Notes: a model not told the origin generated them from the letters alone. Numbered from the stretch's first letter, positions 3,666-51,462 are shown. The stretch: 64,000 nt of DNA from an uncultured Lentisphaerales bacterium (GCA_943788985.1 CALSSJ010000012.1:1-64000), one strand, 5' to 3'. Numbers and translations are program-made.

Positions 3666-3693
3666 GCGGCTATTTCGCCTGGGGGTGTTCGGT
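3666..3693 (-). repeat. Internally deleted attC-like remnant
   Basis: Minus strand ACCGAAC-ACCCC-CAGGCG-AAATAGCCGC keeps the R''-like box and the CAGGCG/AAATAGCCGC core shared with the other junction repeats. Confidence 0.45.
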
Positions 3694-3710
3694 TTGACGC
3701 TTTCCTATTC

Positions 3711-4866
3711 TCACCAGTAGCCAGCGTCCTGACAGGCGGTGCCTGTTTCACGATCGAAGTAGTACGTCGCCCCGGCGGCACTCCTCTTGTGCGGTCCTCT
3801 GTATCGTGTCGCATTCTCCAGCGCTTCCCAAACGATGGGGGGGGGCAAAAATGATTTCCGATGAGCGAACCTTCGGCTCGTAGCGTCCCACGGGAGAGCC
3901 TTCACGCGCTGCCGTGATATCTTCCTCGCTGTAGTGCTCCCACGATTTCGGCTGGGCGGAAACCTCTTCTCGGTAGCGCCTCCAGACGTCTGCCAGGAAC
4001 GTGTCGAAGGCCTCCGCTGAGATGCGGTAATGCGCCATGTGCCCGCTGCGATCGCTGACCAGTTTGATGTCCGTGGCTTCCACCGGCAGGTAGCGCATGA
4101 CCCGGGGATCGGAGATCTCCGCCCCCTTTTTGAAGCGGTGCATCCCAGCCAGGAACTCAGGCTTGTCAGCCTCCTGGAGCACATCACCTGCCCGGGCAGT
4201 CGCCCCACCGGTCGCGATCTGTCCGCTTGGCAGATTCTCACTGTTCTGAATAGAGATCTTGCCGTCGGGAGCGACGATCATCTCGAATGCCGGTGCCGCC
4301 GCATCCTCCTCCTGCCCGGCTGCCTGCTTGCCCTGTTTTCCGGGCATGCCCCCGGGAGTCCAGCTGACTGACTGCTTTTCCGCATCCCATTGTCCGTCAA
4401 AAATCGTGGGCGGGACCTTGGGCCTTTGCATGAGGTGGGCCTCGGAGTAGGGCAGGGGACCAAAGCGGACCAGCATCAGGGCGAAGTGTTGTTCTTTATC
4501 GGACACCGCCAAGAACTGCTCGACGATTGCGTGTTGCGGATTCTTCGCGGGCCAGGACCAGATCAGGCTCCAGGCCGATGTCATGCCTCCTTGCGAACCG
4601 CCCGTGGCCACGAGCTTTCCGGAAAAGGCGGTGGTACTGTCGCCCGCAGCGGACTCCGCCTCGAACGACCAAGTTCCGCGGGCTGCATTGAGCCCCTTGA
4701 ACAGGGCAAGCTGATCGGGCGCAAAGCTCTTGGGCAGTGTCCATCCAAGCGCCTGCCAGTCGGCGGAGACTTCCGACTCCGGTGTCTGAGCGGCGGCTTG
4801 CCGCGACGACGCCAGGAAGGCGATGGTGCAGAGGAATATGGTGACAATTGGGCGTACGTGTCTCAT
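3711..4866 (-). CDS. Secreted hypothetical protein; probable frameshift at a G9 tract (3837-3845)
   Basis: 372-aa ORF with signal peptide (..SSRQAAA|Q). An alternative frame after the G-run gives a plausible C-terminus ..GATYYFDRETGTACQDAGYW* ending at 3711. Confidence 0.65.
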
Positions 4867-4873
4867 CTTACTC

Positions 4874-6850
4874 TTAGTCGCTTCTGGATTTGATACTGGG
4901 CAGATCGCGCACTCCCGTGATAAAACACCCCGATGACCGGGTCGTGTTTCCTTTCATCGTTGGGAAGTTGCCACCCGGGTTGCCGTCTCTATCCATCATG
5001 TTAGCAGTAATGACGTATCTGCCCAGCTCCGGGATGTAGGCGATGTCCGGGTCCTGGATGCGGTAGTTGTCCCAGTCATCCACTTCGTCTGAGCGCGGGG
5101 TGATCGCTTTGCCCACGTACTCGAAGGGCTTATTAATGTCCTTGGATTTCCAGGCCACGACCTTGTAGGGGCTGCCCTTGGATTCGCGGTCGCAGTAGAT
5201 GTAATACTCTCCTCCGATCTTTTCGATGGTGGCATCTCCGACGCCGTAGGTGTGCCCGCCATCGGGATTGGGATCAACAGCCTTGGCGTTGACCAGTTTC
5301 CAGTCGCCCAATCCGGTGGTGGAGCTGAAGTGCGCCAGGCTGGTGCCATCCGGCCCGTGCGGGAAGTCACCGTGCTCGCCGAACATGTGAAACACGCCAT
5401 CCTCGTAATAGATGCCGATGTCATCGCACTGCTTGAAGGGAAAGGTGCCGGCCGCTTTCCATTTCCCGCTGGCTTCCTCAAGAGGCCCTGAGAAGGTGTA
5501 CACGATTCCTTCTTCGTAGAGATAGTAAGTGCCGTCGACCTTCACGCCGTCATCGTACTCGTAGTGTTTGCCGATGATGTATTGGTCAGAAACGAGCTCC
5601 CAGTCCGCACTGCTCCAGGAGAACTTCTTGGCCCGCCAGAGATGAGCGGCTTCCTCGGTATGGCTGATGATCAAGTGGTAGGGGTATTCCAGCTCCGGAT
5701 CGACGAAGAGCACAGAGTCATGGTTGTTGCCAAAGGTTGAGGTAAAGACCGGGTTGTCGACCGGACGCTTCCAATCCAGAGCAGCGAATCCGGACGCCTC
5801 GGCAGCGGCTGCATCTGGCTTGTTCGCGAATGGGGCGGGGCTGTCGCCAATTCGTTTCATCCCCCCGGAGAGTTCGCCGTGGGGTCTTCCAAGCACGGGA
5901 CTTGGTTGCTTGGCTAGCGTAAAGGTAGCGACTACGGCGCGATGGTCAGAAGGGTAGGGGGAAACAACGATGTCCGCCATCTCTTCATTTTCTCCGACGA
6001 TCTTTGCCTCCGTCAGCTCGATGTCTTTGCCTTTGAAATACACAAAATCGATGCGATCAAGGTGCGTCGTGGGATCATCGGTTGTTTTCGTGGGGGGCCA
6101 GGTGAAGCCGGGCTTTGCCATCTCGTCGGGATAGATACTGCGATAAGAATCAATAAAGCCTGCTTTGGTCATAGCCAGAGAATTCGGGTATGCCACCTTC
6201 ATGGGATGGCGACCGGACTTGGCTGCTGCTTCGGTCCAGTCAAGGTGTGACGGTTCATTGAAATCGCCTACCACAAAAACAGGGGCCTCTTTGTCGGGGA
6301 GATTCCGTATCTGATTGAGAAGTGTCGAGATTTCCTCTCCACGTGCCTTTTTAGCTGCTTCAATCGCTTCGGCTTCGGTCTTGATGAACGGGAGTATCCT
6401 TGTGTTTATGCCACTTTGGTTGGATGCTCAAAAGCTGGTACGGTTGATAGGGGTTTGATGGCAAGTGCAGGCTGAACACATAGGCTTCCTGGCCCGTAGG
6501 CAGTTTGACCTTAATGCCACCGTTGAGGTTTCGACAATTTCATAAGGCGTTAAGATGATTCCTTTTCTAATGTTCGCAGAATGATTCCAGCCCAGTAAGC
6601 TTGCCAATTTCTCTGTGGTAAATCCCTTCGGGCTCTTTGGTTCCTGTATGCCGACAATATCTGCCTTGGCCTCCTGAATCACCTTCACTGTTTGCGATAG
6701 CGGTTGCCCGAGCATCTCGCCACCGCGATAGATGTTGTACGACATTACCCTCACGGTGGACTCGTCGGCTTGCGCGTGAAAGGGCGTCCCCAAAGCCAGC
6801 CCGAGTACGAGCAGTAATCCTCTGGTAAGTGTGCTGATTGTATGCTTCAT
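4874..6850 (-). CDS. EEP (endonuclease/exonuclease/phosphatase) domain fused to a five-bladed beta-propeller glycosidase-like domain (GH43/GH117/GH130-type fold); frameshifted
   Basis: EEP motifs VMSYNI..DIVGIQE, VGDFNEPSHLDW, DRIDFVY and PSDHRAV, followed by WKRPVDNPV, HDSVL, GVGDATI and IQDPDI (propeller-type motifs). Frameshifts at about 6330-6540. Confidence 0.75.
5806..5827 (-). repeat. attC-like left half embedded in-frame in an inter-domain linker
   Basis: Minus strand GCGAAC-AAGCC-AGATGCAGCCG (translated NKPDAA) matches the AAC-AAGCC-GGATGCAGGCG arm seen at 13953-13996 and 33141-33170. Confidence 0.5.
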
Positions 6851-9800
6851 CGTTCTCTCTTGTTTCTCGCCTGTTTATCCGTCAAACTGCCACGGCTTTC
6901 GACCGGCAGTGGTCCGCTGACACCAGGATCAGGTGGCGTGCTGCCGGCTCCTGTTCTGCCCATGCCCCCTTGCGGCGAAGCAGCGGTCCAGAAAGAGCCT
7001 TCCTCCTGAACCTGGGATTCAAAGGCCGTCAACTTTTCCAGCATTTCCTCGACACGCTTCGGTTGTTCTCCGGCGCGGTCGATTCTCTCTCCGAGATCCT
7101 GTTCTACTTGGAACAAGATCGGGGTGTCACGGGAGGCCTGGAACCCATAGTTGTTGCCTGTTTGCGAGGCGATGCGGATGTGCATCTTCCAGGGCCCGAT
7201 GCGAAGGGCTGAAGGCATGTTGTCCTTCCATGAATAGTAGAATTCGAACGCCGGCACATTTGCCTTGTGCGTGTGCGGCATCAAATACGGGCTGATGTCG
7301 CGGCCGTCGATCGACCGATCCTTCGGCAGGTCAGCGCCAGCCAGGGCAAACACCGTGGGCAGGATGTCCAGCGTGCTGACCGGAGACTGCTCGACGGAAT
7401 TGGCAGGTATCGTGCCTGGCCAGCAGAAGATCCCGGGAACGCGGTGGCCCCCTTCCCAGGTCGAGCCTTTGCCATCCCGGAACGGTTGTGCGTAGCCGAC
7501 GTGAAGGCGCGCTTCACCATATTTGCGGTGACTCGCGGTATCCTGAAAGGTGATCCATGGGCCATTGTCCGAGGAGAAGATGATCAGCGTGTTCTTCGTG
7601 AGTCCGGCCTCTTCGACGGCGTTGCGTATGCGTCCAACACTGTCATCAATTTCCGCCATGACATCCCCGAGTAGCCCTCTTCGTGATCTGCCAAGGAAAT
7701 CCTCAATCGCGTAGAGTCCGAGGTGCGGCATGTTGAACGGAATGTAGGCGAAGAATGGGCTCTCCTTGCTCTTCTTGATGAATGAGATAGCTGCCTCGGT
7801 AGAGCGCTTTGTCAGGGAGGCGCAGATCTCGGGGTGTGAAGGCAGATCCCTGGCGATCACCGACTTCCGGATCAGCGAATCTCCGAGCTCGATTCGGTTC
7901 GCGGTGGGGATCGGGTAGTAGCAGTAGGGGATATTGAAGTCCCAGTGAGAATCTGCCCAGATCGAGGGCGTCTGCCAAATACTGGCGGTATCGATCATCG
8001 CTCTGTCAGCACGCGTGGCGGATCCCAGTTTATACATGGTTGTCCAGTACATCGTCTCCACCCCTGTGTCCGGCACGCTGACAAAGCCAGCGGGATAATA
8101 GGCGTGCCACCAGTCGTAGTGCTTCTGCTTCCAGGCGGCATAGGCATCTGCATCCATGTCACAGACCTTGCTCACCGCCGCAACGGCCTCGGCGATGGGA
8201 TCATTGCTTTTCTTTGGCCAGCGGTTGGCAATGCTGACGACCAGACGCTGTTTGCCTTTTCCGGTCGCAACCATCTTCCAGGCGGTCACATGACGGGAAC
8301 CGCCCAGCAGGTCCTGGATACAGACATTGACCCCGTCGACGACCTTGACGACCGGATCTGGGTTGGGTGCAAACACCTTCGTCGGGTAGTTCGAACGATA
8401 CTTCTTCCTTAGGCGTGGGAGTTTCCTTTCGCTTGTTGCGTAGCCTTTTCGGCTCGGCATGGAGGAGGCCGGTTTCCATGTCAGCGATACCGGTGCATCA
8501 CCTGATTCCAGATCCGTGACAATCACCATATCTTTCGAATGGGTAAATTGCCGTATATTCAGATCGGATTCCATCGTTTGGATCGAGCCGGACACCTCTG
8601 CGTCATGCAGTGATAAGCGCAGGTTACAACCCACCGGTTTTGTTTCTGGTTTCAGATAAAAGGATCCGATCTGTAAGCGTGCGCGGGTATAGCTGATGGA
8701 GCCCTGCGTCATCGGCCGATGCGCCTGCACGTCACCACGGAAGACCTGGAGTCGGAGAGCATCTTTTTCGACCCATGACATCGACCCAATCATGCCGTTG
8801 CCCGTCCACGGCGCCTCTCGCCAGTTGCCGGGTAAACGCTTCCAGATCATGTCATGACGGGCAAGAAACGCGGGCCAGTCGATGTCCGTCTTCACCTGTG
8901 CGGAACTGTTCGGCCTCACTTTTGCTGCCAACTGCTGTTTCTTGATGGCAGACGTCAGGTTTGGGTACCAAGGGTTCTCTGTGCGATTGGAACCAAACAA
9001 CTTCTCTGCGCGCTCGACCAGATCCTGTCGCTTGGAAGCCAAATCCTGTTTGCACCCGGGATCATCGAAGACCTCAAAGACACGAACGGGTTCACCGGGC
9101 TTCATGCGAAGAGCAAAGAAGCGCTCGTCCAGCAATACGGACTGCACATTACGTCCTAAGGTCCCCTGTTCCCAGTAGAGGAACTCACGCTGTGGAACAT
9201 CGCTATCGTCTCCTGCGAAAAGCGGCAGGAAGCTAACCCCATCCGTCTTCGCCGCGGTCGTGCCGGCCATCGCAGCGAAAGTCGCTTTGAGGTCATAGCA
9301 CGACACGGCACGCTCTGTTTCGCCGGTTTTCACCATGCCGGGACCCCAGGCAATGAACGGGACGATGACGCCACCGTTGGCGGCAATCAACTTCCCACGG
9401 TCCCACGGCCCTTTGTTCTTGAGCACAGGGTCATCTTTCCAGCGCACTTTCTTCGACGCCTTCGTGTAGCCCCAGGCCGAGTAGCCGTTGTCCGAGGTAA
9501 AGAGGACCAGCGTGTTCTCATCGAGCCCCTGGACCTTCAGTTCGTCTAGAATAGCGCCGACCGACCGATCCATGTGGGTCACCTGTCCGGCCCAACGCTT
9601 CTGATCGTCGGTCCATGGCGCCGGCTTGTCTTTCAATTCGCGCAGTTCCTTTCGGCCACTCCGCGTGCGTCAGCGTCGAAGCATAGTACATGAAGAATGG
9701 TTTCGTGTGAGGCGTGCGCAGAAACTTGATCGCCTCTTCCATGTAGATATCTTCGCAGTACCCGCATCGCTGACGGATTCGGCATGCCGCCCGGAACAAA

Positions 9801-10434
9801 CCGCCCCTCTTTGTCAAAACGGTTGTCAGGGTGTCCGATATGGAAGCCTTTGTTTTCCGGGATTTCCTCGGCAACACCATTCCGCCACAGACGGGTCGGG
9901 TAGATGTACTGTGCGCGCTTGTTCTTCTCGTGATCAAAACAAAGCGAATGCTCGAATCCTTGCAGGTGGGGCATGCCCGGCGTGCCGGGTTCACCCACGT
10001 GCCACTTTCCAATCTGACACGTCGTATAGCCGGCAGAACCCAAGGACATGGGCGATGGTTTCGTCATCTGGAAGCAGGTAAGGACGTTTGTGCAGTTTCG
10101 GCCGCACGTCGGTCATCAGCCTCCGAAACGTGCAGTGCCCCATATCACGACCGGTCAGCAGGCCTGCCCGGGACGGCGCGCACTCAGGGGCGGCGGCATA
10201 GGCATTGCTGAAGACCATGCCTTCCCGTGCCATGCGGTCGATGTTCGGTGTCGAAAACTCTTTCTGTCCAAAATGGCTGATATCCCAGTAGGAGAGGTCA
10301 TCGGCGAGAATGAGAATGATATTGGGCGGCTCTGTATCGTTGCCTTTAGCGAGCAATGATTGCGGGGAGTATTGCGCACGAGGCCAACAGTGCGCTGACG
10401 GTGCATGAAAAGTCATTTTGCTGATTGTTTTCAT
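6847..10434 (-). CDS. Chimeric protein: sulfatase + truncated GH95-like domain + C-terminal half of a second sulfatase; frameshifted in the 5' part
   Basis: PPNIILILADDL..CAPSRAGLLTGR (9991-10434); FTSDNG..WEQG; DIDWPAFLARHDMIWKRLPGNWREAPWTGNG (GH95-like N-terminus); abrupt switch near 7865 to PFFAYIPFNMPH..FSSDNGP..GKGSTWEGGHRVP. Confidence 0.75.
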
Positions 10435-10449
10435 GTGTGTTCCCTCTTG

Positions 10450-10509
10450 GTCGAACACTGCGGATCAGACGTCCCGCTTAGAGGGATCGCCTGCACCCTA
10501 TTTGTCAGC
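10450..10509 (-). repeat. Near-complete attC-like site (60 bp)
   Basis: Minus strand GCTGAC-AAATAG-GGTGCAGGCG-ATCCCTCTAAGCGGGA-CGTCTGATCC-GCAGT-GTTCGAC. L-box arms with an unpaired C, inner hairpin and GTT-containing R' box; lies between two genes. Confidence 0.6.
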
Positions 10510-10531
10510 ATCTTGATTACCTGGCTTTGGC

Positions 10532-12137
10532 TTACTTGGGTTTCGAGACGGTCGTAACGTGGGTGCAATTCGCCTTTTTCACATAAGTCGGGGTGTCCGT
10601 AACACCTTTGGCTGTAACGGACAATTGCGAGTCATGGACATCATCCAGGACGATCGCCGGCCTGGCGTCCTTCCGCTTGATCGTCACATTGACGTTCTTC
10701 ATCGTAAGTCCTTTGACATGGCGCACGTAGAAGCCGTAGGCCGGAAGCACACCGAACATTCTGTTCTCCGGATATCCCCTGCCTTTCTCAGGAATAACCC
10801 GGGCCGCGTCCTTTGCGGTGCATTCCGTGAATCCACCCAGGATTTCAATCTCCACATTCTCGATGGTGACGTTCTCCACGTTGTGCTTCCCGACCCCGGT
10901 AATGCTGGACGCGTACACACGATATTTGTGGGCCGTCTCTCTCTCGGTGAATCGTTTGCATTTGTGCACCGTCGCCTTGATCCCGCTGATGTGGACGCCT
11001 CGAATGGTCCCGGTCGCAACCTTCTCCATTGATCCATCCGGTAAATACAGAGGCCGGTTGCGGTTGCCCAGTTTGATGAAGATTGGCGTGTGGACCCTCT
11101 CCATCGTGATGTTCCGGATGATCACGTTGCTCATTTCGCCACCGTCGACCACTTCCAGTGCCAGGCCTGAGATCCGGTATTGTGGATTGTATTGTTCTCG
11201 ATCAGAATGTTCCGAAATCCGCCGCTGGAGTCGGTTCCTGCCTTAATCGCATTGCAGAGACTTCGCACCCTGTTGTTGCGTATGACAACGTTCCGGCACC
11301 CCTCACGTGTGTACCCCTTCAGACAGATGCCATCGTCCATTGAGTCGATATCGCAGTTCTCCACGAGCACATCTTCGCAATCCAGAATGTCACAGCCGTC
11401 ATTATTCGAGAAGTTACTGTCGTATACCCGGATCCCGTCGACATGGAGATTCTTGCATCGCGTATATACCTGCGTCCAGAATCCGGCAGACGTTAACGAG
11501 ACACCCTGTATGTGGGTGTTCTTGCACTCGTCGAACCAGATGAGTGTTGGTCGGTGCTTGATTTTGCGCTCGCCGCTCTTGAAATCGTTCTCCACCTGAC
11601 TGTTCCCGTTCAGTGTGCCTTCGCCCGTGACTGAGATGTTGCTTGCGTTTTGTGCGAAAATCAAACTGCGCATCAACCATACCGAATAGCGGGCGGGCGT
11701 TGCCGGTTTCTGTGGTGGGTATTCACGAATCCATGGGCTGCCCAGCAAAACGGCATCCTTTTCCAGGTGCAGGCGAATGTTGTCGGTCAGGACGATCGTA
11801 CCGGACAGGAAGGTGCCTTTGGGGATGATCACGATTCCGCCACCGGCCGCCGCGGCGGCATCAATGGTCTTCTGGATCGCTACCGTACAGAGAACCTCGC
11901 CCCCCTCCTTTGCGCCATGGTCAGTAATCAGGAATTCTTTGAGATCTTTTCTCGATGGCGCCTGGTAGATGTTTTTCGTGACTCGTTCAAAGGGTTCTAA
12001 TTGAGAGGGCATCACTACGGACATCGTATCTTCAATAGCACTGTTTTTCCCATTCTCTCCCGCAAACGATAGGCTGCAGCAGGCCGCGGATACAAATCCC
12101 GAGCAAAGAGCATGTAAGGTATCTGTTTCATTTTCAT
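10532..12137 (-). CDS. GH28-family (pectin lyase fold) glycoside hydrolase; frameshifted
   Basis: ITDHGAKEGG..AIQKTIDAAAAAGGGIVIIPKGTFLSGTI, NNDGCD, DSMDDGICLKG, NAIKAG; C-terminal part LPAYGFYVRHVKGL. Frameshift near 11165 and in the signal region; start uncertain. Confidence 0.85.
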
Positions 12138-12182
12138 TATGATGGTTCCTTTAATTTGCGGTGGCTTAACTGAAACTTATGT

Positions 12183-13918: not shown

Positions 13919-13952
13919 GTTATTCTCCGTTGTTTTCGATATAATATTTTGT

Positions 13953-13996
13953 TGAGGCGCGGCTATTTGGCGGCGCCTGCATTCGGCTTATTCGCC
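13953..13996 (-). repeat. attC-like remnant overlapping a stop codon
   Basis: Minus strand GGCGAAT-AAGCC-GAATGCAGGCG-CCGCC-AAATAG-CCGCGCCTCA; the R' end is lost. Confidence 0.6.
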
Positions 13997-40748: not shown

Positions 40749-40830
40749 GATTTCAGTATTGTCCTTCTTCGTTTCAATGTTCCTGGATGGTGGATGCAAA
40801 GCCCGCTTCCACGGTCGGCAGCGCGTCCGT

Positions 40831-41026: not shown

Positions 41027-41029
41027 CGA

Positions 41030-41127
41030 TGGTGAGGCCGTTTCCTGAGCGCGTCCGTGTCGACTTGGCCCTGTGCCGTCCCCGTGAGCGTGGCTCCCAG
41101 GAGTAGGATGATCCAGATTCTGTGCAT
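41030..41127 (-). pseudogene. Orphan signal-peptide-coding gene start, truncated at the palindrome
   Basis: MHRIWIILLLGATLTGTAQGQVDTDALRK is a well-formed Sec signal peptide; the reading frame then runs into the repeat. Confidence 0.4.
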
Positions 41128-41249
41128 TCGCTCGGTCCGTGGTTGAGTTGCTGGTTGCGCCAAATCCGCGGCGTCTGTCAATAATTACAGCGCCGCTCTG
41201 GCAATCTCTCAGGCACATTTGGTGCAGCGGGGAGGGACTTTTGTGATTT

Positions 41250-41287
41250 GATTGACCGGATTGACAACGACGTCAATACGGTCAATC
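41250..41287. repeat. Short hairpin/palindrome
   Basis: GATTGACCGGATTGAC-AACGAC-GTCAATACGGTCAATC, 15/16 complementary. Confidence 0.6.
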
Positions 41288-41480
41288 GCGTCAATAATGT
41301 CTCCTCTACTGCGGCTCCGCCTCGATTGGTCGGGTACCGCGGCACCCCGATCGACAGAATGCGCGCAGGGAGTTCCTCTTTTCTGTCATTTCTACTTTTG
41401 GTATTCGGATTTGACTTCGTCGAGCTCGCAGGCTCGGTTCTGTCCCATCTCCCGGTGTACTTTAAGGGGAAAACTCAGGC

Positions 41481-43351
41481 CTAGCGGCGGGTATCGGGGT
41501 CGCCTGCATCTTGATTGTTAAGTTTCCTGTTTTCATTATGGACCTGTTGGATCCAGGCGATGGCCGCAGGGGCTATCAGTTCATGGCCACCGTCAAAAAT
41601 GGTAACCGTTGCATGGCCCGACTCCCTTCGGAAGAGAGGTTGCTTCTGGCCATAGTTTGGGTCTGACAGGTTGGCTTGCAGCTTCGGCGGGACCTTTCTC
41701 TTCTCAACAAAGAAACGAATATCCTCTTCCGAGATCCGGTCTTCCGCTGCCGCTACTTCGTTGAACGCAAGAAGTGAATGGCTAATGGGAACGATTCGCT
41801 CCTTAATTCCTGCGTTGAGATGCAGGGTCGTTCCTCTCGCGTTTTTCAGATAGGTGATGGGTGATCGCTTTGCATACTCCGCGTCAACCGCAGGGCTATC
41901 ACCCGGTGCGCCACCGCATGATTTTTCCATGGACTCGACATGTTTTCCTTGGCCATGCCAGGCCGCCAAGTCCGATATGGGGACCCAGGCCGAAACCCCT
42001 GCCCATAGCTCCGGATGGTGCCCAGCCATGACCAGCGCCGTGTAGCCCCCGCCGGACGTACCGACAAGAAAGACGGAGGAATCATCGATGTTGCTTGTCT
42101 TCTTCGCGTACTCCACCGCGCTTACAATATCTGCCACAACCAGTTTTGACCCGGTTGCTTCAGGTCGATTGTTGGGGCCACGGAAGTCTGGATGGATGTA
42201 CACCCACCCCTGCTCCATGCACCATTGCTCAATGGCTTTGTGGTATTTCTGCTTGTAGTTCCCGGACCAGGTATGGAGAGCAACAATAAGAGGCACGGGT
42301 GTTTCTGACGCGGGAGCATAAAACATGGCAGGCTGCTCGGATTGGTCTGCAGCGCTTTTATACTTAATTTCCTTCACCTTTGGGGCAGGTATTTTTTCTG
42401 AGCTCGGTTGACCGAAAGCGTAAACGTCGCTACCACGGCACGGTGGTCAGAGGGGTATGGAGCGACCACGATATCCGCGTTCTCTTTGTTCTCTCCGATA
42501 ACCTTCGCATCGGTCACCTTGAGACCCTCGCCTTTAAAGTAAACATAATCAATGCGGTCATAGTGGATCGTAGGATCATCGGCTTTATTGAGAGTCGTCC
42601 AGGTGTAGCCGGGCTTTGCCATCTCGTCGGGATAGACCGTGCGATACGCATCGATATAGCCTGCCTGGGCCATCATCAAGGAGGTGGGGAATTCCACCTT
42701 CATGGGGTGGCGGCCGGAGTTGGCCGCGGCTTCGGTCCAGTCCAGATATGAGGGTTCGTTGAAATCGCCGACGACAAAAATAGGCGCCTCTTGATCGGAG
42801 AGAGCATTTATCCGTTTGAAAAGTCGTGCGATGAATCTGGCGCGCGTCTTATTTGCACCGGCAATTGCCTCGGCTTCGGTATCTATTTTGGGGTACACTC
42901 TGTAGCCGGCGGTCAGACCCAAGAGCTGGAAGGGCTGGTACGGACCGTGGGGCAGGTGCAGGTTGAAGACATAGGCTTCCTGGCCTGAAGGCAGCTTGAC
43001 CTTCATGCCGTCGGAATTCCTTTTGGCACTATCAGGTAACTCCTCGACAATTTCATAACGCGTGATGAAGGGACCGCTATGATTCCACCCCAGCAGCTTC
43101 GCCAGTTTCGGGACATTATTGCCGATCTCCTGCAGACCCACGATATCGGCCTGTGCCAGCTCGATCATCTTGGCCGATTGGGACAAGGGTTGCCCACGCT
43201 TCGTGCCGCCATGTAAAGCATTGTAGGTCATGACCCTCACGATGGACTCTTCGCCGGGCTTTTCGCTTTCTGCGTGCAGGGGTATTGCAAAAGCCAGCCC
43301 AAGACCGAACAGCATTGTTATAGCACTCATCGTGCGAATTGTTTTCTTCAT
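41481..43351 (-). CDS. EEP domain + alpha/beta-hydrolase (peptidase S9-like/esterase); probably one fused gene with a 1-nt frameshift near 42412
   Basis: EEP 42374-43351 (signal peptide, GDFNEP, PSDHRAV). Hydrolase 41481-42377 (ALHTWSG, PDFRGPN, GTSGGG, FDGGHE) has no signal peptide. Upstream of its GTG the hydrolase frame reads QPSSEKIPAPKVK, matching the QPSSEK tail of the EEP at 24019. Confidence 0.8.
41499..41523 (-). repeat. attC-like left half inside the 3' end of the hydrolase gene
   Basis: Minus strand ACTTAAC-AATCA-AGATGCAGGCGAC: canonical RYYYAAC, a 5-nt spacer and the shared L'' arm (translated LNNQDAGD). Confidence 0.55.
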
Positions 43352-45496
43352 TAAAGTTCCTTTTTATGGCCGAGCTGCGAGAGCTTCCAGGTCTTATCGG
43401 TGTGTACCTTTCCATCCCCAAAAATGATGCGGACACGGGCCGTGGGATCGTCACGAGTCGTGTCGAAATCAATCGTCGCAAAGCCCTTCTGCCCGCTGTT
43501 CGCTATTCCGGAGGACATCACCTCGACCATGGGATAGCCGACACGGTCGGACTCGTGGTGCTTCCCAGACGAGGGATTGGTGCATATCGCCTGACAGATA
43601 CATCACGCCGGAGATCTGATTTTCTTTGATGGCATCGAAGAGACGGTGGCGTGAAAAGGTGTAGATGCGCCATCCATCCACCTTGCTGTGATGAAGCGTA
43701 CTGCCGGAAGCAATGATCTTAAATCGGGCTTTTGAATTCTTGAGACCGTTTAAAAGCCACTCAAACTGGGCATCCCCAAGCATCCGCTTCTTCTCATCAT
43801 CCGGCACTTCGTTGGGCGAACGATGGTAGCGACCATCCACTACAAAAAAATCAACATCTCCATAGGAGAATTTGAAGAAGGCACCCGGGGTATCGACAGT
43901 TCCAAGTTCCGGGTTGGCCCAGAACTGCTTCCAACCCGCCAGCGAAAACTCTTTTCCTTTTGCCGTACCATCGGAATTGTTGGGACCGTAATCATGATCA
44001 TCCCAGATCGCGTAGACCGGCACATGGCGCAGCACATTGGCAAACTCCTTCTCCTGGCGGTAGGCCACATGATGTTTTAACTGCACAGTAGGGTCGGTAG
44101 TATCGGAATATTGGGTATCGCCCACCGTGATGTGAAGATCGGGTTTCTCCGCGAGCAGGAGATTCCAGGAATCCTGGGGCCCTCCACTCCGCATGCAGGA
44201 GGTAATGGCCAGCCTGAAAGCCGAGGGCTTTCCCTCGACCGGAGCCGTCTTGAAGGATCCCTCCCGGGCGGGATCAGGTTTACCATCTACAGAAACCTGA
44301 TAGCGATAACGCGTATCTGGCAGCAATCCCGTCAAGGGTGATTTGAACACCTGCCCGGACCCCTTGGCGGCGGGGTTAGGCTCCGCGGTAAACGTTCCCG
44401 TCTTTTTATCAACCAGAGAGGATTCCTCGGCATGATAGTTAAAGGTGCACCGGGACTTGGCCGGGGCATACATCCACAAGGTCATCCCATCCGGTTTGAC
44501 ATCCCCCATCAGAGGACCGGCGATCCCTTTGTCTGCTTGTTTGGCCAGCGAAAAGGTCGCCACCACCGCGCGGTGGTCAGAGGGATAAGGCGAAACAACG
44601 ATGTCCGCGTTCTCTTTGTTTTCACCCACGATCTTTGCGTCGGTCAGTTCTACGCCCTTGCCTTTGAAGTAAACAAAATCGATGCGATCATAGTGGGTCG
44701 TTGGGTCATCAGGCTTGTACATGGGCGACCAGGTGTAGCCCGGGTTTTTCATCTCGTCGGGATAGATCGTGCGGTAAGTATCGACAAAACCTGCTTTGGT
44801 CATCGCCTTCGAGGTGGGATACGCCACTTTGATCGGGTGGCGACCGGACTGGGCCGCTGCTTCGGTCCAGTCAAGGTGTGAGGGTTCATTGAAATCGCCC
44901 ACCACAAAAACAGGAGTCTTTTGGTCGTAAAGGAAACGTATCTTTCTAAGAAGTCTTACTACGTGTGGTTGGTAGCGTGCCTTTCTTGCCCACTCAATCG
45001 CTTCGGCTTCGGTAGTGATCTTTTCGCCGCCGCGAGTAATACCCAATAGCTGGTAGGGCTGATACGGACCGGATGGCAGGTGCACGTTGAAGATGTAAGC
45101 TTCCTGGCCAGAAGGCAGCTTGACCTTGATGCCGCCTTTGTTGCGGCTGTTGTCACCTTTGATGCGCTCGATGATCTCATAACGCGTCACGATCTCGCTA
45201 TCCACGTCGTGATTCCACCCCAGCAGCTGCGCCAGTTCCTCCGTATTCTTAGGGTACTTTCTTACCTGGATCTCCTGCAGACCGACAATATCAGCCCGGC
45301 CCTCCTGAATCACCCGGGCCGTCTGGAAGAGGGGTTGCCCACGCCTCCTGGCGCCGTGATATACATTGTACGACATGACCCGAACGATGGACTCTTCGCG
45401 GGGCTCCTCGGTTTGTGCCTGCAGGGGCGTCACAAAAGCCAACCCAACGGCGAGCAGCATTCCCATAGCACTCATGGTGCGAATTGTTTTTTTCAT
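43351..45496 (-). CDS. EEP domain + PhoD-like alkaline phosphatase fusion; frameshift near 43560
   Basis: Start MKKTIRTMS at 45496; EEP motifs; then LAITSC, VGDTQYSD, AIWDDHDYGPNN, VDGRYHRS, MLGDAQFEWL, LSGDMH. The shifted frame continues ..EVMSSGIAN..HKKEL* to 43351. Confidence 0.88.
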
Positions 45497-45507
45497 AACA
45501 GTTCCTA

Positions 45508-45556
45508 TGCAAACTTCTACCCGCACCGACTTGTTCGGCTGCGGGAATTGTTGGCG
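45508..45556 (-). repeat. Compact attC-like site (49 bp), homologous to 19976-20024
   Basis: Minus strand CGCCAAC-AATTC-CCGCAGCC-GAACAAGTC-GGTGCGG-GTAGAA-GTTTGCA. Confidence 0.6.
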
Positions 45557-45566
45557 TTTTTTTTTA

Positions 45567-45757
45567 AACCACTGATGGACACTGATATTCATCTCACGAC
45601 GCGCTTCCATTCGAGTTTTGTTTTCTTCTTTAAATTCAGGAAATATCCCAGACCGTATCCGGTCACGTTCATCCTTGGAGCAACCCACAATATACTAAGC
45701 CTCCATCTTATGGATCGGTTCGGGTTTATCAGTGTCCATCAGTGTCCATCAGTGGTT
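45567..45757 (-). mobile_element. Miniature inverted-repeat element with a deleted GxxExxY gene (copy 3)
   Basis: Arms AACCACTGATGGACACTGAT / ATCAGTGTCCATCAGTGGTT. The interior encodes MDTDKPEPIHKMEA*YIVGCS.. joined out of frame to VTGYGLGYFLNLKKKTKLEWKRVVR*. Confidence 0.75.
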
Positions 45758-45764
45758 GTCTCTT

Positions 45765-46811
45765 CTATTCTTTTGGTTGATTGGATAGCGTGAAGGTCGC
45801 GACCACGGCGCGGTGGTCGGAAGGATACGGAGCAACGACGATGTCCGCATTCTCTTCGTTTTCACCGACGATCTTGACTTCAGTCACCTTGAGCCCTTTG
45901 CCTTTGAAATAAACAAAGTCGATGCGGTCGTGATGAGTCTTAGGGTCATCGGGCTTGTACTTGGGCGACCAGGTGTAGCCCGGGGTTTTCATCTCGTCGG
46001 GATAGATCGTGCGATAGGCATCGCCAAAGCCGGCTTTGGCCATTGCTAGAGAGTTGGGATATTCCACTTTAATGGGGTGGCGGCCGGCCTTGGCAGCGGC
46101 TTCGGTCCAATCGAGATGTGAGGGTTCGTTGAAATCACCGACTACAAAAACAAGGGCCTCTTGATCGGGGAGGGCATGCACCTGCTTGAGAAGTCCTGCG
46201 ATGATTTCACCGCGAGCCTTTGTTGCCCATTGAATCGCCTCGGCCTCGGTCTTGATAAATTCGATATCAAATGTGTGCTTATGCCAAGTCGGACGGATGC
46301 CCAGCAGCTGGTACGGTTGGTAGGGATGGGAGGGCAGGTGGAAGTTAAAGATGTACGCTTCCTTACCCGAATCCAGTTTCACTTTGACGCCATTTTTGAG
46401 CGATTCAACGATTTCATAACGCGTTATAATTTTAGAACCCTTGCCCCCATCATGATTCCAGCCCAGCAACGCAGCGAGATCCTCCAAGGTGTCACCCCGG
46501 GGGGATCTCGTTTCCTGAATGCCGACGATATCCGCGTTGGCTTCCTTAATGGCCTTGGCCGTTTGGGACAGGGGTTGCTTCAACATGACGACGCCACCAC
46601 GATGTATGTTATAGGACATGACCCTCAGCGTGGACTCTTCAGCTTGGAGCTGCAGGGGCGAACCCAAAGCCAATCCAACAGCGAACAGCATGCCGATCAT
46701 GGCGAGGAGGCGATTCGATATCGCCACAGAAGCAGAGAAAGCCTGTCCAGATACAGACGTGACTCCGCCATCAATAGGGCTATATAGATATTTCGTTTTT
46801 TTCATTTTCAT
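45765..46811 (-). CDS. Secreted EEP-family protein
   Basis: VMSYNI, DIVGIQE, VGDFNEPSHLDW, DRIDFVY, PSDHRAV; start codon uncertain. Confidence 0.9.
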   Translation of the reverse strand: MKMKKTKYLYSPIDGGVTSVSGQAFSASVAISNRLLAMIGMLFAVGLALGSPLQLQAEESTLRVMSYNIHRGGVVMLKQPLSQTAKAIKEANADIVGIQETRSPRGDTLEDLAALLGWNHDGGKGSKIITRYEIVESLKNGVKVKLDSGKEAYIFNFHLPSHPYQPYQLLGIRPTWHKHTFDIEFIKTEAEAIQWATKARGEIIAGLLKQVHALPDQEALVFVVGDFNEPSHLDWTEAAAKAGRHPIKVEYPNSLAMAKAGFGDAYRTIYPDEMKTPGYTWSPKYKPDDPKTHHDRIDFVYFKGKGLKVTEVKIVGENEENADIVVAPYPSDHRAVVATFTLSNQPKE

Positions 46812-46901
46812 TTCCTTCTCTATAAAGGATCTCGTTTTCCTATTCGCATCACTACACGAGTTCGTTCATTCTTGCCGATCAGAAGCGAAGGCGGCAACTC
46901 C

Positions 46902-49900
46902 CTAATTGGCCGTAAAGCCGATCACGCGCAGGGCGGTGCCGCCCTGCTTCATGCGGCCAGGACGGTTTTCGAGGATCTCCAGCTCGAGCGTGTGGTCACC
47001 AGTCTCCAGCTCGTTAAAAAACATGATGGTGACGGGATAGTTAAACCCGCTGAATTTGCAGAGCGTGTCGATCTCGTTCGTCTGCTTGCCATCGATCGTA
47101 CAGCGGAGAATCCCCGCGTCCGGCCCGGCCAGCATGTACGCGCCAATCGCGGTGCCGGCAAAATCAATGGTCAGCTTCGCGCCAGCGGTGCTGCTGTAGA
47201 TCATCGGCGATTTCATAAAGCGGGCCCGAACCGCCCCCCTGTTTTCCCCTTTCCAAATCGGCACGCCGACCTTCCAGTTCGCGTCGGTTGTCGCATCCTC
47301 AAACGGCAGAAAGCGACCGCGGATGTAGCTCTTTTCGTCAATTGCTTCTTTGACCGGATATGCGCGGGGTTCGGCATTGGCTGGCAAGGGCTTTGCCCAT
47401 TCCTTGAGCAGCGCATTGGCAATCATGGTTGCGCACATCGTGTTGCCGTGCTTTTTCGGGTGTACCCCGCCGTAGGTCTTCCAGTCCGTCTTGCCAGCAG
47501 TGATCTGATCCGCCAGCTCCTGCGCCAGGTTGTTTACCGACACATCGTAATGCTCTGCCACCTTACTGTGGGCGGCAACCGACGCAGCCATGCGCCCCTG
47601 TTTTGCCTGACTCAGGATGTTCTCATTCACAAACATGGTCATCACAATGTCGACGTTCGGGTTGTGCTTCCGGGCCTGGGCGATGACACCCTCCATCCCG
47701 CGCAATGCATCGTGATAGCCCTGGTCGCCATCCTGATCATCATTGACGGTATACTCGACAAACAGCATATCCAGCGGTCCCTTGCTCAGGACATCTCGTT
47801 GCATGCGAAACGCACCAGTATCGGAACAGGTTGAGCTGATCCCCGCATTGGTAAAAGTAAATTCAGTTTGAGGGAAGCGCTTCTTCAACATCTCGCAGAC
47901 GATCGGGCGATAGCCATTCATCTCCGTAATTGAGCCGCCAAGAAACGCCACATGCCCGCGTTTTTTCTGCTCGAACTGAATGCGACTATTGCGGGAGTCG
48001 CCACGCAGGACGAAGTTTTGATCGCCCACGATTTCCTTGGCCGCGAGTGTACTCTGGCCTTTGTCCGGCTGGGTGACGAAATCGACAATTGGCTGCGGGT
48101 TTTTCAGCGAATGCGGATGGTGGCCGGTGTCAGGCTTATGAATCACCTTGATCACTCCGCCCAGCTTCTTGTAACGCGCTTCTGCAATCGCCGTGTTTTC
48201 GGCAAGCGGCACGATATCGTCGGCATCCCCCACGACGTGAATAAGCGGAATCCCGGCCTGTGCCAGCGGCGCCAGATTATCGAGCGGATTGCCTTTGTAC
48301 GCCAGCGCTTCTGCATCCGTGAGGCCATAGGCATTCAAACAGGTTTTCCAGGCCCCGCCGGCCCCTTTCCCTTTGCCCTTACCACCTGGCCAGCTTGTGA
48401 AATCCATGACCGGCGCATCGGCGTAGATCGCTTTCACTTTGTCCGGATTCGCCGCCGCCCAGTTATACACGATCAGGCCGCCGCGCGACATCCCCTCCAG
48501 AACCGGCTTATCCGCAAACAGGTGCTCAAAACGGAGATAGTCATAAAACGCATTCCAGCGCTTCACCGCTTCCGGGCTACCAAACAGGTTGCCAACATTG
48601 CAGTAGACGATGTGATAGCCCCGCTTCAGCATGGCGACATCAAACTGCGGCTCATGCCCCCAGAAGCGCGCGCGCCAGACCCACGGCTTACCGTCAGCAA
48701 TCTTCTTCGGAAGCACCACTTTGCAGTCCACACCTTCGAATTTGAAGCCAACCTGATCGAAGCCATGAAAGGTGGACTTCTTGCCCTGCCACTCAGAACC
48801 GGATGGTGCACGGGCGGACTCTGCAACAGGCCGCTTTGCAGCCTTGGCAGGAATCTCAGCCTCCGTGGTGAAGATAGAAGCTGGCAGGCCTTGCTTGTTA
48901 TAGAGATTGGCCGCTTCAGCGTTCTGTGCCCACGCATAGCGGACCACCGTTGGATTCGCGACGTCCGGGTGAGACACAGTGATCGTGTCGGTGCCCGTAA
49001 TCTCAACATTCGCCCACTGCCACTGACGGTCTGCACCACAGATCTGGAAATGCTGCAACGGTTCATCGGACTTCTGTGTGTCGGCCATCCCGACCTTTGA
49101 ACCAGCCATCAGCCCCGAACCGGCGGAATCAAACGTGATGATGACCTGGTTGCCTTTGATTGTATGGCTCTTGTAGAGTGGGCCGCTGCAAACAGGCACC
49201 TTCTGTTTGTAATCATGCTTCAAGGCCCACAACGCCAGGCGCTTGCCGACATCTATTTTGTTGTGCGGATGGATATCGGCGGCTTCGCCGATGTCACTCA
49301 GCACGGCCATACCGGTATGTTTCAGACCGAGCGTCCGGCGCTGCTGATCGCAGATCAATGCCCAGGAGTCGAACTCAACCGGCTCAGTAACCGGTTGCTG
49401 AAAGTTCGCCAGCTGCGCGAAGTAAAACGGAAAATCTCCCTGATCCCACTGCTCGCGCCAGGCGCTGATCATTGTCCTGAAGTGGTGTTCGTACTGAGGG
49501 ATATTATGACCAGCATTCGACTCGCCCTGATACCAGATAGCCCCTTTGATGGCGTAGGGAACAACAGGGTTGACCATGGCGTTGAAGAGCGTCGAGGGGA
49601 ACTGTGGCCCTCCGTTCGGCTTCGATGGTTTCCTCGGCTTTCTATGTCTTCTTGCCTTCTTGCCTTTCGCCTTCTCTTTATGACGCTCAAGGGCAGCCTG
49701 GTAGTCCGCCTCCGCCTTTTTCGGATCCCATGATGCGACTTGATTTTCAAGATCGGATCGGTTGCTCGAATAATAGGCAGCCATTTCCGTATCCTGCAGG
49801 AATGCCTCCGCGGGAATCCAAGGTTCGACGCGGGTGCCGCCCCAGGCGCACTTGATCAGGCCGACCGGAACGCCAAGTTTCTTGCGCAGCTCACGCCCAA

Positions 49901-50480
49901 AGAAATAGGCCGTCGCCGAAAAGCTAGGATTGTTCTTGGGTGAGGAGTCCATCCAACTGCCCGCGAGGGTTGTTCGCGGCTCAAAGGGAGACATGCCCTT
50001 GTTTACGGTAAACTGCCGCAATCCGTCATCCGTCGCCGTCTCTATCTCCTTCTTAACGTAGTGTGCAGCGGGCTGGTGTTCCGCCGTGGTGCGCTTGGGG
50101 GAGGCCTTGGCCAACTGTTCCAGCACAAAGTCCATGTTCGACTGCCCGGAGCAGAACCATACTTCTCCGCAAAGAACGTCGTGAATGTCGACCGTGTTGT
50201 TTCCCTTGATGGTAAGGCTGTACGGCCCGCCAGCCGCGGGCGTCTTCAACGTCACGCGCCATGTGCCGGATGCGTCGGCTGTCGTAGCCGCAGATTCACC
50301 CCAGCTCGCGCTGACAGTCACCTCTTCACTCGCATCTGCGGTTCCAAAGACGGGTGCTTCGGTTTCGCGCTGGATCACCATGCCATCGGCAAACAGCGCC
50401 GCGGGCCGCACATCGGCCATGCCAACAAACGGCGTGATGATGACCAGCGAGACGATCAATACATTTAGCTTAACCGTCAT
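46902..50480 (-). CDS. Triple esterase: SASA + alpha/beta-hydrolase + SGNH/GDSL domains (1192 aa)
   Basis: CSGQSNM..WYQGESN..DIHPHNK; KPWVWRARFWGHEP..EGMSRGG..VVGDADD..GHHPHS; VAFLGGSITE..NAGISST..VEYTVND..GGVHP. Confidence 0.9.
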   Translation of the reverse strand: MTVKLNVLIVSLVIITPFVGMADVRPAALFADGMVIQRETEAPVFGTADASEEVTVSASWGESAATTADASGTWRVTLKTPAAGGPYSLTIKGNNTVDIHDVLCGEVWFCSGQSNMDFVLEQLAKASPKRTTAEHQPAAHYVKKEIETATDDGLRQFTVNKGMSPFEPRTTLAGSWMDSSPKNNPSFSATAYFFGRELRKKLGVPVGLIKCAWGGTRVEPWIPAEAFLQDTEMAAYYSSNRSDLENQVASWDPKKAEADYQAALERHKEKAKGKKARRHRKPRKPSKPNGGPQFPSTLFNAMVNPVVPYAIKGAIWYQGESNAGHNIPQYEHHFRTMISAWREQWDQGDFPFYFAQLANFQQPVTEPVEFDSWALICDQQRRTLGLKHTGMAVLSDIGEAADIHPHNKIDVGKRLALWALKHDYKQKVPVCSGPLYKSHTIKGNQVIITFDSAGSGLMAGSKVGMADTQKSDEPLQHFQICGADRQWQWANVEITGTDTITVSHPDVANPTVVRYAWAQNAEAANLYNKQGLPASIFTTEAEIPAKAAKRPVAESARAPSGSEWQGKKSTFHGFDQVGFKFEGVDCKVVLPKKIADGKPWVWRARFWGHEPQFDVAMLKRGYHIVYCNVGNLFGSPEAVKRWNAFYDYLRFEHLFADKPVLEGMSRGGLIVYNWAAANPDKVKAIYADAPVMDFTSWPGGKGKGKGAGGAWKTCLNAYGLTDAEALAYKGNPLDNLAPLAQAGIPLIHVVGDADDIVPLAENTAIAEARYKKLGGVIKVIHKPDTGHHPHSLKNPQPIVDFVTQPDKGQSTLAAKEIVGDQNFVLRGDSRNSRIQFEQKKRGHVAFLGGSITEMNGYRPIVCEMLKKRFPQTEFTFTNAGISSTCSDTGAFRMQRDVLSKGPLDMLFVEYTVNDDQDGDQGYHDALRGMEGVIAQARKHNPNVDIVMTMFVNENILSQAKQGRMAASVAAHSKVAEHYDVSVNNLAQELADQITAGKTDWKTYGGVHPKKHGNTMCATMIANALLKEWAKPLPANAEPRAYPVKEAIDEKSYIRGRFLPFEDATTDANWKVGVPIWKGENRGAVRARFMKSPMIYSSTAGAKLTIDFAGTAIGAYMLAGPDAGILRCTIDGKQTNEIDTLCKFSGFNYPVTIMFFNELETGDHTLELEILENRPGRMKQGGTALRVIGFTAN

Positions 50481-50561
50481 ATTCGGTTCCTTGTTACTTT
50501 TTTTACTCAGCTCTAATAGTCCGACAGGCTGCTATTCGAAATGGGTGGTCGCTGGGATCTC

Positions 50562-51390
50562 TTACTCACAATAGACCCAGGGATGGTCGGACAGGCAGCC
50601 CTCAGCTTTTAAATTCCGATCGTTCTGGTTCTTTGGTCCCCAGTCTCTCTTGGATTCGATGAGTTTGACCGAGCCCTTTGTGCTGAAGAGGATGTGGTCT
50701 ATTGACTTCTCTTTGGTTGTGTTCTCCAGCTTGACATCTTTCGAAAGAGATCGCATGACCAGGCCATCGGTCCATTCATTAAAGTCGCCCCCGACGATAA
50801 TGCCGTAACTAGCATCTTCGGCCTTGATCAGCTCCGCCAGCTTTTTGTGTTTCGAGCCCTCCCAAGCAGCAGAGGAAGTAGGTTGCTTCCTGTGGTGGGC
50901 ATAGCCTGGCAAGTGCAGAGAGTAAAGCGCGAACTTCCGACCACCGATTTCAGTCTCTGCATGCACTGGGTTCGCACGTTTCCAGCCACTCCCTTCCACT
51001 GTGATGTCTTTGCCCTCGGTCAGAGGCGTTCGGCTCAGAATGGACTTGAACTTGCCGCCATAATCACCCGTTATATCCCCCATTGGGGAGCCTTGTGCCC
51101 CGCGGATGAACTCGTTCCAACGTGTACGTGCTCCAGGCCGAGTGCGTCCGCTAAGCGTTGTGACCAATCCTTCACGTCTTTTCCTGGGTTCGCCTTGGGA
51201 ACCTCACTAAGCAATACGATGTCGGCCTTCAGAGGCTTCAGAAGCTCGGTAATTTGCTCAGGAGTAGCCCATTGCCCGCAAGCGACGTTATACGCCACCA
51301 CGCTAACCTTCGTCGTACTGGCTCCATATACAGCCGTGGTCATCAGCAGAGCCGACATCAGTGTACGCGTGTCAAAAATTTGTTTATCAT
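50562..51390 (-). CDS. EEP-superfamily protein (divergent from the other six); frameshifted
   Basis: VVAYNV, DIVLLSEVP, SILSRTPL, YSLHL, IVGGDFNE, IDHILF, LSDHPWV. Frameshifts near 51110 and 51370. Confidence 0.8.
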
Positions 51391-51416
51391 CAGTTGCCTT
51401 GTTTAATTGGTTTTTA

Positions 51417-51462
51417 GTTCAACGGTTTCTTATCAGCGTCTTCACGGATGGCACCTGCAACA
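51417..51462 (-). repeat. Eroded attC-like site
   Basis: Minus strand GTTGCAGGTG-CCATCCGTGAAGA-CGCTGATAA-GAAACC-GTTGAAC; R' fits GTTRRRY. Confidence 0.4.

Follow-up and report, generated by a model that had tools for sequence, protein, structure and literature searches.

Worn attC sites of two families suggest cassette uptake in a glycan-degradation island of a marine Verrucomicrobiota genome

The integron integrase (IntI) acts on attC sites folded as single strands, which it recombines at the GTT of their R' box, and the cassettes of integrons are mostly promoterless. In sedentary chromosomal integrons, for instance those of Vibrio, the arrays lie in the chromosome, run in one direction and contain families of similar attC sites. 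We examine here a stretch of 64,000 nt (hereafter the window) that makes up the first 64 kb of contig C12 of an uncultured Lentisphaerales bacterium (GCA_943788985.1 CALSSJ010000012.1:1-64000), a metagenome bin of 4.58 Mb in 48 contigs, 83.6% complete and with 1.49% contamination. Along an island of about 60 kb of hydrolase genes, this window carries what appear to be the worn remains of attC sites, and we find it fairly likely that this glycan-degradation island, in a marine Verrucomicrobiota genome that probably belongs to the Kiritimatiellia, took up genes as integron cassettes.

Among described systems, the clusters of attC sites lacking an integron integrase (CALIN; Cury et al. 2016, PMC4889954) resemble the window in that attC-type sites follow gene 3' ends in a single orientation and no intI lies close by. 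In that work, sites were clustered within 4 kb because the largest cassettes then known were about 2 kb long, integrons were present in Verrucomicrobia and Planctomycetes, and integrase loss is discussed as a possible origin of CALIN; in our case, a frameshifted intI lies elsewhere in the genome. Unlike in CALIN, most of the window sites are too decayed for a general attC model, they are spaced by 0.3 to 9 kb as opposed to the 4-kb clustering, and their cargo consists of large secreted hydrolases. With sedentary integrons, the window shares a one-directional chromosomal array and families of similar attC sites, and contig C20 of the same genome has such an array beside intI; unlike them, the window lacks intI, attI and the cassette promoter Pc, and holds long carbohydrate-metabolism genes. 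In the metagenome survey of Pereira et al. (2020, PMC7370490), carbohydrate metabolism was the most under-represented category among integron genes (odds ratio 0.158), and the median integron gene measured 402 nt.

By its content, the window recalls the Kiritimatiellia clusters of a recent preprint (bioRxiv 10.64898/2026.10.06.756941), which bring together carbohydrate-active enzymes (CAZymes), many sulfatases and a solute:sodium symporter; unlike these, it has attC remnants at gene boundaries, and its gene order varies between near-identical strains. The part of the preprint available to us mentions neither integrons nor attC, nor the terms mobile or horizontal. Outside subscription journals, which our search did not cover, we found no paper linking integrons with Kiritimatiellia gene clusters and none on sulfatase or CAZyme cassettes. 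Types of attC are described as grouping by environment (Ghaly et al. 2021). Finally, repetitive extragenic palindromic (REP) elements and intrinsic terminators are, as here, short hairpins placed after genes and co-oriented with them; unlike these, the window elements have no T run and no genome-wide spread, and they show AAC/GTT boxes with spacers and scores under attC models.

Two attC families and their remnants

The earlier note on this DNA, made from the sequence alone, had drawn together 14 short related elements and assembled a consensus from them. All 14 coordinates do correspond to short sequences at or near gene 3' ends, which on the gene strand can form hairpins at or just past the stop codons, but they are not all related: direct likeness (blastn-short) joins four pairs only, namely 13953 with 24003 (27 nt, 96% identity, E 3e-6), 13953 with 33141 (30 nt, 87% identity, a weak E of 0.7), 19976 with 45508 (39 nt, 90% identity, E 3e-6) and 45508 with 34112 (23 nt, 91% identity, again weak, E 0.17).

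A pattern of 21 letters (18 of them fixed), taken from the copies at 13953, 24003 and 33141, was searched in species-representative genomes (596 Gb), where it matched 93 stretches against about 17 expected by chance according to our own arithmetic. These matches come from Planctomycetota, Verrucomicrobiota, Kiritimatiellia, Lentisphaerota, Deltaproteobacteria, Acidobacteriota, Chloroflexota and others, and 80 of the 93 loci were fetched. Their flanks give a whole element of 62 nt, in which R'' closes with AAC and is followed by a spacer, by L'' carrying an additional G, by a loop with AAATAG, by L', by a second spacer and by R', which opens with GTT. This is the consensus of the earlier note, right half included. 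In the window it is a composite, since no whole copy exists there and its right half is kept solely at 34312, but natural whole copies elsewhere match it. The extra base claimed in L'' is also present; it is the G of GGAT[G]CAGGCG, and not the C as first thought.

Two general attC models were built from the integron sites of this genome (see below), R1 from 7 sites and R2 from 15, none of them from the window. R2 scores 24 of the 80 outside loci at the place of the pattern (E<=0.01), and within 1.5 kb on their sides it detects another 16 attC sites. In the alignment of the family (A8), 88.2% of the cells pair, and shifting the partners by 1 to 3 columns lowers this to 27-35%. Pairing reaches 96.9% in the L helix, where the G of column 18 is unpaired, and the spacers measure 4 nt. 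The inverse R'' (..AAC) and R' (GTT..) boxes pair in the intact outside copies, both of this family and of the compact one described below. Judged by its sequence and pairing, the main family is a real 62-nt attC family, of which the window holds eroded copies.

The frames upstream of the outside copies (at least 100 codons) read through R'' and L'' and stop at the TAG of the attC loop in 39 of 55 loci, so that unrelated proteins share the same short tail, a feature of possible relevance to the way cassettes originate. Without one duplicate and the window's own relative, 53 of these frames were submitted to Pfam, and 15 of them encode hydrolases: 3 Exo_endo_phos (EEP) proteins, 1 sulfatase, 5 glycoside hydrolases, 2 BNR sialidase-like proteins and 4 esterases. 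All but one of these 15 loci (14/15) are in records of PVC bacteria (Planctomycetota, Verrucomicrobiota, Kiritimatiellia, Lentisphaerota), and the remaining outside cargo is made of ordinary cassette genes (methyltransferases, GNAT, APH, PIN). R2 at E<=0.01 is passed by 3 of the 15 hydrolase-associated sites, which means that erosion beside hydrolase genes is not peculiar to the window.

A third model, R3, was built from 23 of the 24 outside copies that score with R2 (one duplicate dropped, none from this genome) and run on the window with filters off; the next 100 kb of the same contig served as its control, in which no R3 match exceeds 11.0 bits. Whereas the general models miss the main family, five window sites reach E<0.05 with this outside-built model and another four lie at 10.4-13.4 bits. 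All nine are on the minus strand, which is that of the genes, and at gene ends, in agreement with the co-orientation described by the earlier note; the sole plus-strand match (13.0 bits) is in an AT-rich stretch at 14221-14255. Because the pattern was taken from 13953, 24003 and 33141, the centre of these three copies matches R3 by construction; the scores of 34310-34368 and 10448-10511 are independent of the choice of pattern.

Among the five best sites, remnant A (site 13953; 13937..13997, minus strand as for all sites below; R3 26.4 bits, E 6e-6) follows a glycoside-hydrolase-like gene and keeps R'' (GCGAAT), L'', the loop and the start of L', its R' being gone. Remnant D (34312; 34310..34368; 26.3 bits, E 7e-6), after a fucosidase gene, retains the loop, L', the spacer and R' GTTGGCA, and has lost R'' and L''. 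Remnant G (10450; 10448..10511; 23.5 bits, E 6.5e-5), between a GH28 gene and a sulfatase gene, is nearly whole, with the L''/L' stem, the spacer and R' GTTCGAC, its R'' being mutated to GCTGAC. Remnant B (24003; 23992..24053; 16.5 bits, E 0.017), at the 3' end of a broken EEP paralog, retains the centre with both R boxes degraded, and remnant C (33141; 33123..33178; 15.5 bits, E 0.039), at the 3' end of the EEP gene 33116-34108, retains the left half and the loop, the right half being gone. Below these, remnant H (41499; 41458..41524; 13.4 bits, E 0.2), weak and yet above the 11.0 bits of the control, is at the 3' end of an esterase gene and retains an R''-like TTAAC, the spacer and L''. Remnant F (5806; 5758..5829; 11.9 bits, E 0.65, against the control maximum of 11.0), which is also weak, retains the left half (R'' GCGAAC, spacer, L'') and is translated in frame as a linker in the open reading frame (ORF) 4874-6274. 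Remnant J (20249; 20247..20305; 10.4 bits, E 2.2), after a GH95-like gene, retains the stem, the spacers and R' GTTGGCA, the core of its R'' being altered from CCAAC to CCAAA+C. The whole stem is thus seen in G and J, while A, C and F keep the L'' side alone and D the L' side alone, and under R3 the R helix of every main-family copy in the window contains non-pairs. As for spacing, the R3 matches put 3.4 kb between A and G and 1.1 kb between D and C; the general models do not yield the two or more attC sites within 4 kb on one strand that, with no intI within 4 kb, define a CALIN.

Three of the 14 sites are unsupported, all of them on the minus strand. All that site 3666 (3655..3715) contains is a short word resembling AAATAGCCG, and none of R1, R2 and R3 lists it at E<=10; site 16348 (16345..16412), with a small hairpin and GTTGGC, is attC-like by eye and has 12 nt in common with remnant G (blastn-short, E 12), and is not listed by the three models either; site 51417 (51414..51480) is not listed by them and has no fold. 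As eroded attC sites, which is how all 14 had been read, 9 to 11 stand, and at least nine gene boundaries carry attC remnants of two families, which share the orientation of the genes and their 3'-end position with the sites of a cassette array. In the rest of the genome, R3 matches one site each on contigs C25 and C23, and two sites on C26 (33 and 28.4 bits) in an attC cluster with a sulfatase gene, the 28.4-bit site lying at the 3' end of that gene.

The compact family, of which the earlier note had counted three copies, is on the evidence of its layout and scores a second attC type, of 48 nt, belonging to Kiritimatiellota. Its stem of 9 bp is bulged and lies between two spacers, AATTC on the side of a variable ..AAC box and five letters on the side of an equally variable GTT.. 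box; these five letters read TAGGC and TAGAA in the window and TAGAC in all but one of four outside copies. These four, located by a pattern drawn from the hairpin of the family, are found in a complete Kiritimatiellota genome (two copies), which also has IntI and an array, in a Verrucomicrobia bin and in a PVC bin; under R2, they score 25.3, 16.3 and 14.8 bits, and the fourth weakly (12.2 bits, E 0.099). In the window, copy cp1 (site 19976; 19974..20023, minus strand) is the best match to the general models, over 19974-20008 (R1 16.5 bits, E 0.074; R2 17.6 bits, E 0.013), and reaches 13.0 bits (E 0.27) with R3. It lies 30 nt upstream of a fucosidase start and keeps both R boxes, with R'' GCCAAC, a 5-nt spacer, the bulged stem, a 5-nt spacer and R' GTTCGGC. 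Two further minus-strand copies are assigned by their likeness only, going back to 19976: cp2 (45508..45555), which resembles cp1, fits the pattern of the compact family and lies 13 nt upstream of the start of an EEP-PhoD gene, and cp3 (34112..34160), which resembles cp2, has no model support and its left side is partly deleted.

These copies belong to a unit of 200-270 nt without ORF, present three times in the genome, always inside the window. The first copy, of about 268 nt (19983..20250, minus strand), consists of a short leader, an element with inverted CACTGAT-repeat ends and then cp1, and BLAST of the three intergenic regions gives the others at about 34109-34311 and at 45506-45771, on the same strand. 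The unit is also present in the PVC bin just mentioned (L282), where the same CACTGAT element precedes the attC copy. The unit might be a promoter or regulator-binding cassette; a scan of 19900-20350 found no sigma-70-type promoter and no terminator-like site. The CACTGAT repeats at the ends of the unit are spaced by about 10 nt, and their 30-nt motif by itself is also found on contigs C26, C7, C10, C32 and C27.

An integron in the same genome and attC sites in a distant one

As the earlier note had stated, no intI is in the window, where no tyrosine recombinase is found at all; PF00589 is matched three times in the genome, on C10, C17 and C20. The IntI that was to be sought elsewhere in the genome is present on C20, where the integron-integrase model TIGR02249 scores 302.3 bits (cut-off 265) on the C-terminal part and 116.9 bits on the N-terminal part, in a different frame; none of 14 control genomes passes this cut-off. 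This intI (C20:8399-9707) has a single frameshift, where five T in a row precede a G, and either the gene is a true pseudogene or the shift an assembly error. Its closest relatives, with 70-74% identity, are in Verrucomicrobia and Kiritimatiellota records.

Divergent from intI, the C20 array is made of small minus-strand frames separated by seven attC-folding sites, with paired AAC/GTT boxes, unpaired spacers and a bulged stem. In the alignment of these seven sites, 79% of the cells pair, 8 of the 8 pairs of the L helix have changed on both sides, and the covariation score of the whole structure is reached by 0 of 500 shuffles. A folding scan for AAC/GTT boxes across the genome was dropped for lack of specificity (7494 candidates, 58 passing, 2 of the 7 known C20 sites kept). 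R1 locates additional attC sites on C26, C18 and C25. The true sites of this genome bound a PhoD gene (354 aa), an MGH1-like glycoside-hydrolase gene (568 aa) and a sulfatase gene (557 aa), the first two in the C20 array and the last flanked by attC sites on C26; the gene classes pointed out by the earlier note are thus moved as cassettes in this genome. The complete integron is that of C20, the window itself being without intI, attI and adjoining array, and a search for overlaps between contig ends joined neither C20 nor C26 to the contig of the window, the only overlap being C18/C33.

DNA matches to the window were found in 31 of the 41 genomes searched (its own genome among them), mostly as short conserved pieces. 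One of them, G025, of another family in the same class, shares the gene families of the window, arranged in a different order and at nucleotide identities that reach 92% over 1 kb. In this genome, two attC sites (R2 29.3 and 26.4 bits) bound a 3.3-kb unit with a 1057-codon frame that has a GHL15 domain, and one of the two is directly upstream of the homolog of window gene 46902-50480. A member of the 62-nt family scoring 37.6 bits follows a sulfatase gene, and IntI matches over the curated cut-off number four in G025, and one and six in two relatives. We aligned the region upstream of window gene 46902-50480 with the G025 attC; about half of the bases agree, which is unconvincing. Several other features of G025 can be mentioned: its metallophosphatase region (L023:10708-11758) matches window 16412-17462 with 92% nucleotide identity over 1051 nt, its locus contains an IS1595-type transposase, and another repeated intergenic element, a GATTCGCTTCA / TGAGCGAATC inverted repeat, stands before two genes (L023:10490-10620 and 12820-12930).

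Strain differences and competing explanations

Close strains differ from the window at two of the sites. A metagenome contig, L129 (96.5-98.4% identity), lacks window 19983-20250, that is, the ORF-less unit, which is present in L106, and both edges of this 268-nt indel lie in the R' boxes of J and cp1. At that place, L129 has a single site (507-565), the ortholog of J, which scores 25.2 bits with R2 (E 1.5e-4) and 25.5 bits with R3; the J of the window has lost the C of the AAC core. A second contig, L259 (99.2% identity), tracks the window down to 13934, the 3' end of remnant A, and then continues into a different gene. In contigs from two of four marine metagenome runs, 13934 is joined to 12219, skipping the GH20 gene, with a short side of only 22 letters; for this joint and for 7455|10298, whose short sides measure 21-22 letters, an origin in repeats is possible. 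A 1.33-kb piece with the metallophosphatase gene (17548 to about 16240) is also missing in L129 and in one run, and the metagenome contigs break at the CACTGAT repeat (20033-20060). Apart from these, 16040 is a recurrent breakpoint, seen in G025 and in contigs of three of the four runs, at which the first ~110 nt of an EEP gene (the signal-peptide end) are joined to a GH-like gene.

The strain differences that end in R' boxes (J/cp1 and A) are the only evidence, and an indirect one, for recombination mediated by IntI. In the scenario that we favor, the IntI of the lineage would have made the insertions, inserting circles made of a gene and its attC into existing attC sites by recombination at the R' GTT, and most of the island, rather than a part of it, would have arisen in this way. 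Mutations and deletions would then have removed one or both R boxes of most sites, which we propose has left those genes fixed. One or two sites may still have been swapping partners recently, and later reshuffling may have come mostly from homologous recombination between the repeated EEP genes.

Several points weigh against cassette uptake. Under the general models, 10448-10511 reaches about 8 bits (R2 8.2) and the other main-family copies of the window are absent from the R1 and R2 lists, while the second R2 match in the window (E 0.025) is inside a coding region on the opposite strand. The AAC/GTT and folding scan found no canonical site in the window, and Smith-Waterman comparison of 17 validated attC sites with 5114 window tiles stayed at noise level, its top score of 29 being reached also by random coding tiles. 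By R1/R2, the structural scan and Smith-Waterman alone, the attC reading would thus fail. The E-values of the models are rough, as their calibration was shortened, and with R-helix pairs broken in every copy, there is no whole copy in the window. Duplication of one EEP gene along with its 3' end is enough by itself to account for the likeness of 5806, 24003 and 33141, which all form 3' ends of EEP paralogs, and since the element is partly translated as a protein tail, coding constraint could add to its conservation. The R' letters at the 268-nt indel do not exactly fit one simple exchange, and the frameshifted intI is on a different contig of an incomplete and slightly contaminated bin. Whereas strains do differ at two sites, as the comparison of gene order suggested by the earlier note might reveal, the breakpoints 17549, 16214, 16040/6735 and 24487/6354 are in genes and not at attC sites, several of them inside EEP paralogs. 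Finally, only about 11 of the 40 or so gene boundaries carry a remnant, and some stretches, up to 9 kb in length, contain several genes without one; this is the part of the cassette-built island that stands, the assembly of the whole 48 kb going further than the remnants themselves.

The strongest rival is an ordinary operon-like cluster of CAZyme and sulfatase genes, into which a few small cassettes (EEP genes, the 268-nt unit) were inserted or carried, the other remnants having spread with EEP copies by duplication and homologous recombination. In its favor, the metagenome joints 16040|6735 and 24487|6354 pass through EEP paralogs, stretches of up to 9 kb with several genes are free of remnants, EEP genes neighbour three of the five best-supported remnants, and in records of Rubripirellula, Opitutaceae and Opitutales the 62-nt attC family is also carried by EEP genes. 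However, genes other than EEP also precede remnants, with GH28 before G, a GH-like gene before A, a fucosidase before D, a GH95-like gene before J and an esterase before H, and scoring attC sites bound large hydrolase genes in the true arrays and in G025. We regard this rival as unlikely, though it is the most serious one.

According to a second rival, the island is not a fossil at all but an integrase-less attC cluster that some other integrase of the cell, encoded outside it, continues to mobilise in trans. The differences at J/cp1 and A between strains at 97-99% identity speak for it, as do the two R boxes retained by cp1 and the fact that the sole frameshift of intI, at the five-T run, could be an assembly error. 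Nonetheless, each main-family copy in the window is without at least one R box, J is without the conserved C of its R'' core, and the L129-type joint (19982|20251) is not among the listed joints of the four runs, which are contig data and do not establish its absence; we find this rival quite improbable. That the elements are just 3'-end hairpins (terminators or REP-like) or the coding sequence of a shared C-terminal peptide is very improbable indeed: the TAG in the hairpin loop, where the frame ends in 39 of 55 outside loci, and G025, which retains the tail as protein with its bases changed, would fit this idea, but the window DNA is kept in different frames (A out of frame, C shifted, D after the stop), T runs are absent, 19900-20350 contains no terminator-like site, counts of words, both exact and with mismatches, show that the main family is not a genome-wide repeat, and intact copies have paired AAC/GTT boxes and unpaired spacers in arrays with other attC sites.

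Gene content of the island and its significance

The minus strand carries nearly all the long open frames of the window, in a one-directional run of about 40 (2..63983), for which we listed ORFs, termini and families of paralogous repeats and ran Pfam on 40 frames. The glycoside hydrolases belong to GH20, GH28, GH29 (fucosidases) and GH78, with one GH95-like gene, and they are accompanied by sulfatases, SASA/GDSL esterases, S9 esterases, PhoD, a metallophosphatase and 6-7 EEP paralogs, as well as by DUF1559 prepilin-like proteins and a sodium:solute symporter (SSF). Pfam also identifies an insertion-sequence transposase, DDE_Tnp_1 (36465..38339, minus strand), between a fucosidase gene and a SASA esterase gene. 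Rfam at its gathering thresholds has no match in the window.

Much of the repeated DNA of the window is paralogous coding sequence. Two internal duplications are recent, with 93-98% identity (1446-2468 versus 13994-15018, and 12182-12786 versus 26363-26966), and in the first pair the similarity stops exactly at the stop codon, at the start of remnant A. Several genes are affected by split frames. Contigs from two to four of the four marine metagenome runs differ from the window by single-base indels at 6389, 11173, 12489, 13611-13612, 24267 and 24288, which fall in or near split genes (GH28, GH20, EEP paralogs), so that some of the broken frames may be private to the assembly or to the strain. 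The metallophosphatase gene has no start of its own and is fused behind an S9 esterase and a 3'-end fragment of an EEP gene (17454-17557); in strain L129, unlike in the fused version of the window, the S9 esterase terminates at its own stop.

Cassettes are usually described as short, and the true attC sites met here bound genes of 354-568 codons, and a unit of 3.3 kb in G025. Decayed and widely spaced attC sites such as those of the window may escape standard integron searches. It is conceivable, although we would advance it only tentatively and with more doubt than confidence, that in PVC bacteria integron cassettes are a main vehicle for large secreted glycan-degrading enzymes (sulfatases, glycoside hydrolases, esterases and phosphatases), that islands are built by cassette capture and then fixed by attC decay, and that a single 62-nt attC family, near-unchanged across more than 10 phyla, provides most of the genes upstream of it with their stop codon and with a common short tail. 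If this pattern is general, it would widen the range of known integron cargo and would offer a concrete and testable explanation of how glycan-degrading genes turn over so fast in Verrucomicrobiota and Planctomycetota of the sea.

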